Shown here: piece after piece, positions 54,868 through 56,619 of the stretch
How positions within the stretch are numbered: position 1 is the first letter of the stretch
Layout: each line of letters opens with the position of its first letter
Assembly (NCBI GenBank): GCA_964016885.1
Contig: OZ024748.1
Coordinates: 6,820,001-6,884,000 of the forward strand
Length of the DNA: 64,000 bases
From: Eledone cirrhosa
Taxonomy: Eukaryota
Reading direction: 5' to 3'
Program-made: the position numbers and the translations under genes
The notes under the pieces: generated by a model
Database searches by the model: none
The model's input: the letters and a program-made list of their open reading frames with translations, nothing else
What the model was told of the DNA's origin: nothing

Positions 54868-55173
54868 CATATATGTATTTGTGTGTGTGTGTATATATAT
54901 ATATGTATATATTTATACATATATACCTCTTTATTTAATCTTTATTTAATCTGTTTGTTTATTTATTTATTTATTTATCTTTATTTAATATGTTTATTTA
55001 TTTATTTATTTTTGTCTTCTACTCTGCGCATGCGTTTGCGTGTGTGTATAGTGTTTGGTGTGTTTTCGCGTTTAGGTGGCTGTGTTTTGGTTATTGTATT
55101 CTATCTTAGTTTACTAGTGTGTGTTTATATCTGTTGGTTGTTATTGTGCTTGTGTATATATTTATTTATTTAT

Positions 55174-55605
55174 TTATATTTCTCTTAGGTCAGTATTGTT
55201 TGTTTGGGTGTTGTTGTTATTCCATTCATCCTTTCTGTTTAGCCTTGGCCTTCTAAGTTCTATTTCACTGGCCTCTCTGATTTGCCTATCTGCTGGTTCA
55301 TTTCTATGTTTAGATATTATTTTAATTTCTATGTTACCGTCATGTTGTTGTCTGGCATGTTCGTATAGTACTGAACCGTTTTTTCTTCCTTTTAGTTCCC
55401 CCCAGTGTTGGTCTATCCTTTCACCTATGCTACGAGCTGTCTCGCCTATGTATGTTGTTATCATGTTTCTGCAAGTACCCTCTTTACATCTTATGCTATA
55501 GACTACGTTTCTAGTTTTACAGTTTATCCGGGAGTTTACTTTACATATAATACATTTCCTATTAGTACAGTGGGTTTTCTTAAAAGGGTATGTTTTGCTG
55601 ATCAA
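55174..55605 (-). CDS. PLE GIY-YIG endonuclease domain fragment
   Basis: HCTNRKCIIC, NCKTRNVVYSIRC....C...YIGETARSIGERIDQH, RQIREASEI....P.LNRKDEW. Confidence 0.9.
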   Translation of the reverse strand: MISKTYPFKKTHCTNRKCIICKVNSRINCKTRNVVYSIRCKEGTCRNMITTYIGETARSIGERIDQHWGELKGRKNGSVLYEHARQQHDGNIEIKIISKHRNEPADRQIREASEIELRRPRLNRKDEWNNNNTQTNNTDLREI

Positions 55606-56053
55606 GGAAAACCCACTGTACTAATAGGAAATGTATTATATGTAAAGGGGAACTAAAGGGAAGAAAAAACGGTTCAGTAATATACGAACACGCCAGACAA
55701 CAACATGACGGTAACATAGACAACATAGAAATTAAAATAATATCTAAACATCTGAACATAGAAATGAACCAGCAGATAGGCAAATCAGAGAGGCCAGTGA
55801 AATAGAACTTAGAAGGCCAAAGCTAAACAGAAAAAATGAATGGAATAACAACAACATCCAAACAAACAATACTGACCTAAGAAAAATATAAATAAATAAA
55901 TAAATATATGCACAAGCACAATAACACAAACAGATATAAACACACACTAGTAAACTAAGACAGAATACAATAACCAAAACAGTCACCCAAACGCGAACAC
56001 ACACCAAACACTATACACACAGGCAAACGCATGCGCAGAGTAGAAGACAACAA

Positions 56054-56096
<43 letters not shown>

Positions 56097-56154
56097 ACAG
56101 ATTAAATATAGATGGCGTAGACATACAATACAACAGGAGGAAACATAATAGCAC

Positions 56155-56192
56155 CACTGACGATGTTGCAGATGTGCAACGAAAGAACTTTG
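56155..56192 (+). ncRNA. Hammerhead ribozyme motif in the 3'UTR/pLTR of the family C PLE
   Basis: ca-CTGACGA-t-GTTGCA-gatg-TGCAAC-GAAA-gaac-TT-tg. Confidence 0.7.
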
Positions 56193-56619
56193 TTAGACTA
56201 TATATATGTGTTTGTGTCTATATAATATCTGTATTTTTTACCGTTGGTCAGTCAATGGTAAACATTGAGGACAGAATAAATTAACTGATATAAAAGATAC
56301 AGAAGCGAAAACCAACCAAACAGTGAGTGTGTTCTGTTATTAATTCTGGCAATACTATTACACAATATGACCCACGCCAAGTATAACAATATTTGATCCG
56401 ACACACGATTTCATATCAAAAACCTCGCAAAACAAATATATATATATATATATATAGATAAATATACACGGGTGTGTAGTATGATTGTGTATAGAAGATT
56501 ATATTAATAAAAGGAATTCCAACTTTGTCTGATTTACTCGTTTTATTTACAATCCTTTAAACTGTATAATGGTATTAGAATGAAATAGTATGGTAGAATA
56601 TTAAATGTTAAGTGTTAAT

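Follow-up and report, generated by a model that had tools for sequence, protein, structure and literature searches.

The sequence at 54925-56457 of the 64-kb stretch of Eledone cirrhosa DNA analysed here (the window) is a dead head-to-head pair of arms and represents the end piece of a Penelope-like retrotransposon (PLE). With a probability of roughly 85%, it should be regarded as an inactive insertion of a high-copy PLE into (TA)n, truncated at the 5' end of both arms, whose family is likely part of a so far undescribed lineage, Nematis-like and distinguished by a long insertion in the fingers of the reverse transcriptase (RT). The locus itself is ordinary debris, and the overall architecture of pLTR, two arms, hammerhead and (TA)n is already known for Penelope-like elements.

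The two-armed insertion and its parent element

On the + strand, an endonuclease remnant is followed by an (AAAT)n-containing 3' UTR, a hammerhead, a tail of approximately 245 nt and (TA)n beginning near 56437 (Table 1), which is the order given in an earlier note on this DNA. The GIY-YIG C-terminal coding sequence which that note placed on the + arm is a mere remnant there: a deletion of about 135 nt at 55647 has removed the two halves of the GIY-YIG motif, and an insertion of 8 nt causes a frameshift. The complete GIY-YIG domain of the locus is found exclusively on the minus arm, in an open frame of 148 codons (55177-55620; stop codon at 55174-55176), whose product is 92% identical in amino acids to the C-terminal end of the full ORF. 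The coding part of this left arm is 92% identical to an intact young copy; the arm terminates in A-rich UTR short of the hammerhead and abuts TA-rich repeats. In element coordinates, the starting points of the two arms at the junction are separated by about 29 nt, and the arms mismatch at 17 of 450 aligned positions (96% alike), which is less than either differs from the young subfamily. With 82-92% identity to an intact copy, the focal copy is a member of an older subfamily. As had been noted before, the tail recurs without the ORF at three further places in the window (Table 1); the - arm of the 9-kb insertion is 83% identical to the focal tail and its + arm corresponds to the last 57 nt of the tail.

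Table 1. Features of the insertion at 54925-56457 and further copies of the same family in the window
Feature	Position	Strand	Remarks
Second two-arm insertion of the focal family	9016-9365		- arm 9016-9298 with short end and damaged hammerhead core; + arm 9309-9365 with long end
Short-end stub of the focal family, without hammerhead	39593-39706	-	
Degraded stub of the focal family	50198-50279	+	Unrelated to the adjoining Neptune-type ORF fragment
Left arm, 5'-truncated copy: linker zinc motif, GIY-YIG domain, 3' UTR	54925-55608	-	
Endonuclease open frame	55174-55608	-	C-x4-CxxC-x7-C linker, GIY-YIG halves, CCHH residues, terminal LN motif
Head-to-head junction of the arms	55601-55612	.	2-nt overlap, short palindrome adjoining
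Right arm, endonuclease C-terminal coding remnant	55607-55891	+	
3' UTR with (AAAT)n runs	55892-56154	+	
Minimal type I hammerhead motif	56155-56192	+	Core starts at 56157; based on core nucleotides, compensatory stem II changes in a sister family and copy counts
pLTR segment, 5' UTR of the next tandem unit	56193-56366	+	Tandem copies read through into the ORF
First 23 codons of the ORF	56367-56437	+	ATG at 56367
(TA)n at the insertion boundary	56437-56457	.	

The parent element, as seen in natural genome copies, consists of a 4,136-bp unit, often in tandem, with a single ORF of 1,210 codons for an RT followed by the C-terminal GIY-YIG endonuclease (residues 1077-1195). The order within the unit is ORF, 3' UTR, hammerhead, 5' UTR and next ATG. 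Since the ATG of the element falls within the so-called tail, the latter is composed of the 5' UTR plus the first codons of the next unit, i.e., it represents a pLTR. Full units translated from the ATG gave the intact 1,210 codons in six of seven cases, and about 103 of 150 among the copies listed, all of which are identical over the first 120 residues, contain a stop-to-stop frame of at least 1,213 amino acids, as counted by hand. Arrays of up to eight units are present among the copies listed, and head-to-head double arrays also occur. Genome-wide searches (3.0 Gb) returned 3,767 candidates for the tail and 33,554 for the endonuclease, which are not copy numbers. The family is apparently large and young and escapes recognition by standard domain models; it is very abundant and likely still active. 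A single ORF combining a telomerase-like RT with a GIY-YIG domain, the hammerhead motif in the pLTR, pLTRs arising from partial tandems, inverted 5'-truncated copies and a one-sided tail identify it as an EN+ Penelope-like element.

Several features of individual copies may be added. The ORF contains an Asn-rich low-complexity stretch of about 170 residues before the RT (L076:4200-4830), which is much shorter in most homologs seen. Three tandem units at G000:C1:14381650-14395900 (L212-L213) share a common frameshift and are 99.9% identical to each other, compared with 98.7% to another copy, which fits either repeated copying of one template or a local duplication. Eight near-identical copies of one insertion, spaced by about 60-95 kb, are located at G000:C12:17007000-17470000 (L037-L044), pointing to a large segmental tandem duplication. 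A sister family of the same lineage (L005, L034, L068, L072) exhibits about 70% coding DNA identity to the focal family and a better-formed hammerhead.

The focal hammerhead comprises a full core with an extra nucleotide after A9, a 6-bp stem II with a 4-nt loop, a 2-bp stem III with a 2-nt loop and just two contiguous base pairs of stem I. It is predicted to be cut after 56190, a site fixed by the 4-bp stem I of the sister family. The assignment is based on the core nucleotides, on two compensatory pairs by which the sister family keeps the 6-bp stem II, and on copy counts against reversed patterns: the exact core with stem II yielded 10,507 genome matches and a looser pattern including the sister family yielded 28,036, with none for either reversed control. 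The sister family accounts for the majority of the first 100 loose-pattern matches listed. An intact core is retained by 88 of the 97 parsed hammerhead motifs (103 matches, 6 unparsed). In the focal motif, the fold of lowest energy pairs the core with downstream bases, and an Rfam search of 56100-56900 returned no hammerhead family among 33 matches with E values up to 10. The earlier note argued from two ribozyme copies, the focal one and that at 9 kb, which indeed both retain stem II while differing in N7 and the loop; this carries little weight by itself, since the stem is simply unchanged and covariation appears only in comparison with the sister family. The copy at 9 kb is present as reported, but its core is damaged, because it reads GAAG in place of the conserved GAAA.

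The focal motif agrees with the weak, minimal type of hammerhead described for metazoan PLEs by Cervera and De la Pena (2014; PMC4209133), with which it shares a long stem II, a tiny stem III, an unpaired base between positions 9 and 10.1 and a G10.1-C11.1 pair; the 2-bp stem I resembles that of Drosophila virilis Penelope in the same source. It differs from the hammerheads described there in the stem III loop, which is non-palindromic in the subfamily of the window and near-palindromic in the young subfamily. Such a ribozyme would likely be weak and require a dimer or a protein to act, and insertion would likely proceed without it.

The reverse transcriptase and its closest described relatives

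Pfam searches gave nothing significant for the focal endonuclease or for four long ORFs, recognising neither RT nor GIY-YIG, and a sequence search of the PDB returned weak matches alone (best E value 0.15). The predicted fold (pLDDT 90.8) is matched best by telomerase RTs (7trd_A: Z 14.2, rmsd 3.8, 366 residues aligned). Its most conspicuous feature is the distance between RT motifs A and B', which amounts to 129 residues, compared to about 60 in the described clades with C-terminal endonuclease. Values of 127-133 were obtained for 98 of 120 homologs (22 unparsed) and of 118-154 for 68 of 146 more distant proteins (1 mis-parsed, 77 unparsed), as against 58-61 in 76 of 120 Neptune-type homologs (44 unparsed). 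Hand counts in Fig. S1 of PMC8557442 gave 58-61 residues for Neptune, Penelope and Nematis and 116 for human TERT, with about 85 for a single Naiad and about 120 for a single Chlamys element. The approximately 70 extra residues are located in the RT fingers and are predicted to be folded and mostly helical, at a position and with a length similar to those of the telomerase IFD. Superposition on the latter reached best Z values of 6.6-6.8 with rmsd 5-11 over 128-138 aligned residues, tied with RTs lacking an IFD. Human TERT aligned with 106-107 of 194 residues, the same as RTs without IFD, and longer matches showed rmsd 5-13. As superposition of the insertion on the telomerase IFD was not established, a common position is claimed here, not homology.

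An insertion at the IFD position is also shared with the Naiad/Chlamys elements and telomerase RT, and Naiads resemble the focal family in preferring (TA)n. However, Naiad and Chlamys elements carry an N-terminal endonuclease and mostly lack canonical hammerheads, whereas the focal family combines a C-terminal endonuclease with a hammerhead, and the Naiad insertion amounts to about 20 amino acids. Scans of the own genome with two Naiad motifs gave no match. A literature search revealed no described type with C-terminal endonuclease and such an RT insertion, although Repbase or the original 2006 clade paper may hold the family; the number of PLE clades is still eight in the available part of a 2026 preprint (10.64898/2026.07.22.740005). 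A profile search recovered 2,496 representatives at an E value of 1e-30, including some share of other clades. Named members of the group come from Octopus vulgaris, which provides the closest named homolog (68% identical), Holothuria leucospilota and Sanderia malayensis; the insertion is seen in the relatives from octopus and sea cucumber, and a jellyfish also contains members of the group.

From these features it is tentatively proposed, at odds slightly short of even, that the family represents a ninth PLE clade which is distributed across marine invertebrates, is missed by Pfam, and combines a C-terminal endonuclease with a folded RT-fingers insertion of telomerase length. This proposal further includes the presence of at least 100 intact near-identical copies, and ends, one long and one short, that would record an asymmetric dimer which primes each of the two target strands at a different RNA site.

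The family may instead be an ordinary marine branch of Nematis which gained a private RT-fingers insertion and is possibly contained in Repbase under a generic Penelope name, an explanation that is well conceivable, if on the doubtful side. According to the available Figs S1, S2 and S7 of PMC8557442, Nematis shares with the focal family the C-terminal GIY-YIG domain with CCHH, a reduced CX2-5CxxC linker, a similar segment between thumb and linker, the pLTR, and tandem or inverted copies; the short linker, the CCHH residues and the pre-linker motif resemble three Nematis rows in Figs S2 and S7. For the endonuclease part, the top Atlas cluster consists mostly of members from Nematoda (score 0.97; phylum known for 7 members), and the repeat annotation of O. 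vulgaris lists 30 recently active 'Penelope' families, whose clade is unnamed in the available passages (PMC13282606). Against a Nematis branch stand the A-to-B' distance, which is 61 in the C. remanei row by hand count, and differences in the DK, RT1 and B' motifs of the available rows. The focal family carries DKSG and KDHK instead of the Nematis motifs and also RW, the last two of these three being Hydra-like. It further differs from Nematis, as depicted there, by its 1,210-codon ORF with the Asn-rich stretch and by its relatives, which come from mollusc, echinoderm and cnidarian data. Scans of metagenomes for Nematis motifs yielded first none and then 118 stretches, and the fetched loci lacked a PLE-like tblastn match at an E value of 1e-3, a weak test that was blind to Hydra-type elements as well.

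Element ends and a proposed route of insertion

The ends of the copies fall into two zones. Among 112 scored end motifs, 40 stop at position +26 of the ORF, most others at +65 to +84, and five read through; TA-rich sequence follows 91 of the 107 true ends. At the focal locus, the corresponding sites are at about 56392 (short end) and 56437 (long end), and the one-sided tail is the interval between them. Inverted pairs combine one long and one short end in all 23 cases scored, after 11 duplicate loci had been dropped. Seven of these pairs stem from loci selected on the long end, while the other 16 come from loci chosen by protein and are thus unbiased toward long ends. Four further arrays agree with the rule by their BLAST ends, and one pair outside the 23, which was missed by the filter (L048), appears short/short by eye. 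Both standard ends are missing from the focal left arm, and the locus itself therefore does not demonstrate the rule.

Head-to-head junctions are the norm in the family (48 junction rows, some duplicated), which together with the 96% similarity of the two arms and the lack of a TA repeat at their junction makes it improbable that the arms go back to separate events, such as the insertion of another copy within the first or next to it, or a fold-back duplication at a later time. Separate events would agree with the many independent insertions gathered by the (TA)n tracts of the window, with the offset of the arm starts beside a palindrome, and with the missing standard end of the left arm.

For a single insertion of both arms, we infer the same route as that of Poseidon, with one initiation site per strand. 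An RNA of more than unit length would be read through the pLTR, the encoded protein would nick both strands of a (TA)n tract, reverse transcription would begin internally at two zones, one per strand, and the two truncated cDNAs would be joined head to head. After insertion, the right arm would have lost its approximately 135 nt, and the hammerhead end of the left arm may have been lost later or may never have been there. The ends cluster at TA or AT dinucleotides, which suggests primer pairing over 2-4 nt. According to the available passages of Frangieh et al. (2024; PMC11167929), the Poseidon protein of Anolis cuts both strands of AT-rich DNA in vitro, two internal RNA start sites bound its tail, and the protein-assisted hammerhead is dispensable in vitro. 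Poseidon shares with the focal family a pLTR overlapping the ORF start, an AT-rich target, a one-sided tail bounded by two internal end zones, and a hammerhead near the ORF start; the focal family differs in the positions of its end zones, in the clustering of ends at TA-like positions, and in its hammerhead about 210 nt upstream of the ATG. Since Poseidon is reported in these passages to prime without homology and from similar start sites on both strands, the steps of one site per strand and of microhomology exceed the result of PMC11167929 and differ from it. A tail at one end only is described as frequent in PLEs in the available part of Craig et al. (2021; PMC8557442).

Neighbouring families and implications

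The earlier note also regarded the other repeat families of the window as PLE pLTR remnants, which holds for two of the three families tested, a Neptune-type and a Hydra-type one, but not for the family at 8808-8941. An inverted pair of Neptune-type 3' pLTRs occupies 56500-56915, with a hammerhead core in each (56653 on the -, 56764 on the + strand), and further stubs of this family lie near 18115-18307, 41823-41977 and 43869-44066. The endonuclease fragment at 49391-50020 (-) belongs to a second high-copy family of Neptune type with open frames of 775 amino acids elsewhere; its linkage to the stub at 50198 was rejected, as the strands are opposite and the Neptune-type family has a different pLTR. 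At 53930-54097, a hairpin of two hammerhead-bearing ends is found; among 14 further loci of this family, 5 have coding sequence of Hydra type no more than 1.5 kb away. The family at 8808-8941 is about 140 nt long with (TA)n on both sides and recurs near 9676-9810, 33590, 34340-34530 and 37800; it was not linked to an ORF at any of 14 further loci, lacks an intact hammerhead and is possibly non-autonomous. Another hammerhead-bearing tail family, distinct from the focal one, is present at 37016 and 50281-50337, the truncated copy at 50281 being fused directly to the focal-family stub. Rfam returned only microsatellite-driven miRNA-type noise for the whole window among the matches listed (150 of 409).

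The placement of the element among Neptune-like PLEs, which had been predicted, was not borne out. An unrooted tree of 60 core sequences, comprising 27 of the own group, 17 Neptune-type and 16 Hydra-type sequences (subsampled from 78, 67 and 111, the latter two labels being assigned by comparing motifs with the available figures of PMC8557442), separates the focal group from Neptune plus Hydra by a branch of length 1.43 with support of 0.996. The tree contains no Nematis, Poseidon, Naiad or telomerase sequences, so the clade status rests on motifs and spacing. The mean core RT identity is 21% to the 17 Neptune-type proteins (range 16-28%) and 15% to the Hydra-type ones. The linker between CxxC and the GIY-YIG domain has 7 residues in the focal family, compared to about 20 or more in the Neptune-type ORF of the window and in the available Neptune rows of PMC8557442, and the A-to-B' insertion is absent from Neptune. 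In addition, the window contains a true Neptune-type element, whose pLTR and hammerhead are different ones. A Neptune-like affiliation is therefore very improbable, even though the C-terminal endonuclease with both zinc motifs and the targeting of microsatellites would agree with it, Neptune is described as broad and paraphyletic in the available part of PMC8557442, and the Neptune sample in the tree covers a narrow range, each member sharing at least 45% identity with one element. The Hydra clade (Craig et al., 2021), as far as described in the passages available, shares with the focal family the occurrence in aquatic invertebrates, (TA)n insertion, a 3'-end hammerhead and the RW and KDHK motifs. 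It differs by lacking CCHH and the IFD and by a CxCX5C linker, DKT and a length below 3 kb, as opposed to CCHH, C-x4-CxxC, DKSG and a 4.1-kb unit.

That the tail and the GIY-YIG ORF are merely independent neighbours is hardly conceivable, since intact units hold both parts and the 10 of 29 tail loci lacking upstream UTR and ORF fit 5' truncation, several of them being joined to inverted arms. In the other tail loci (the focal one not being counted among the 29), the endonuclease lies colinear within 750 nt upstream in 18 cases and the UTR only is present in one, and 28 of 29 endonuclease loci found by protein have a hammerhead downstream, eight of them being near-identical segmental copies. 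The ORF and the tail thus form one element, the parent of the tail family, as originally suggested, and the unlinking of the two in other copies that would have spoken against this did not appear.

If the family is indeed a ninth clade, it would break a published rule (Craig et al., PMC8557442) by which an IFD, in elements that carry an endonuclease, is confined to N-terminal types, and its status as a separate clade would change the mapping of the fingers insertion onto the tree of PLEs and telomerases. The family also supplies an intact RT for asking about the role of such an insertion outside telomerase, e.g., in processivity, a question which is raised because multi-unit arrays are common in the focal family. 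The pairing of one long with one short end, in turn, makes it possible to test the two-site initiation model by counts in the genome.
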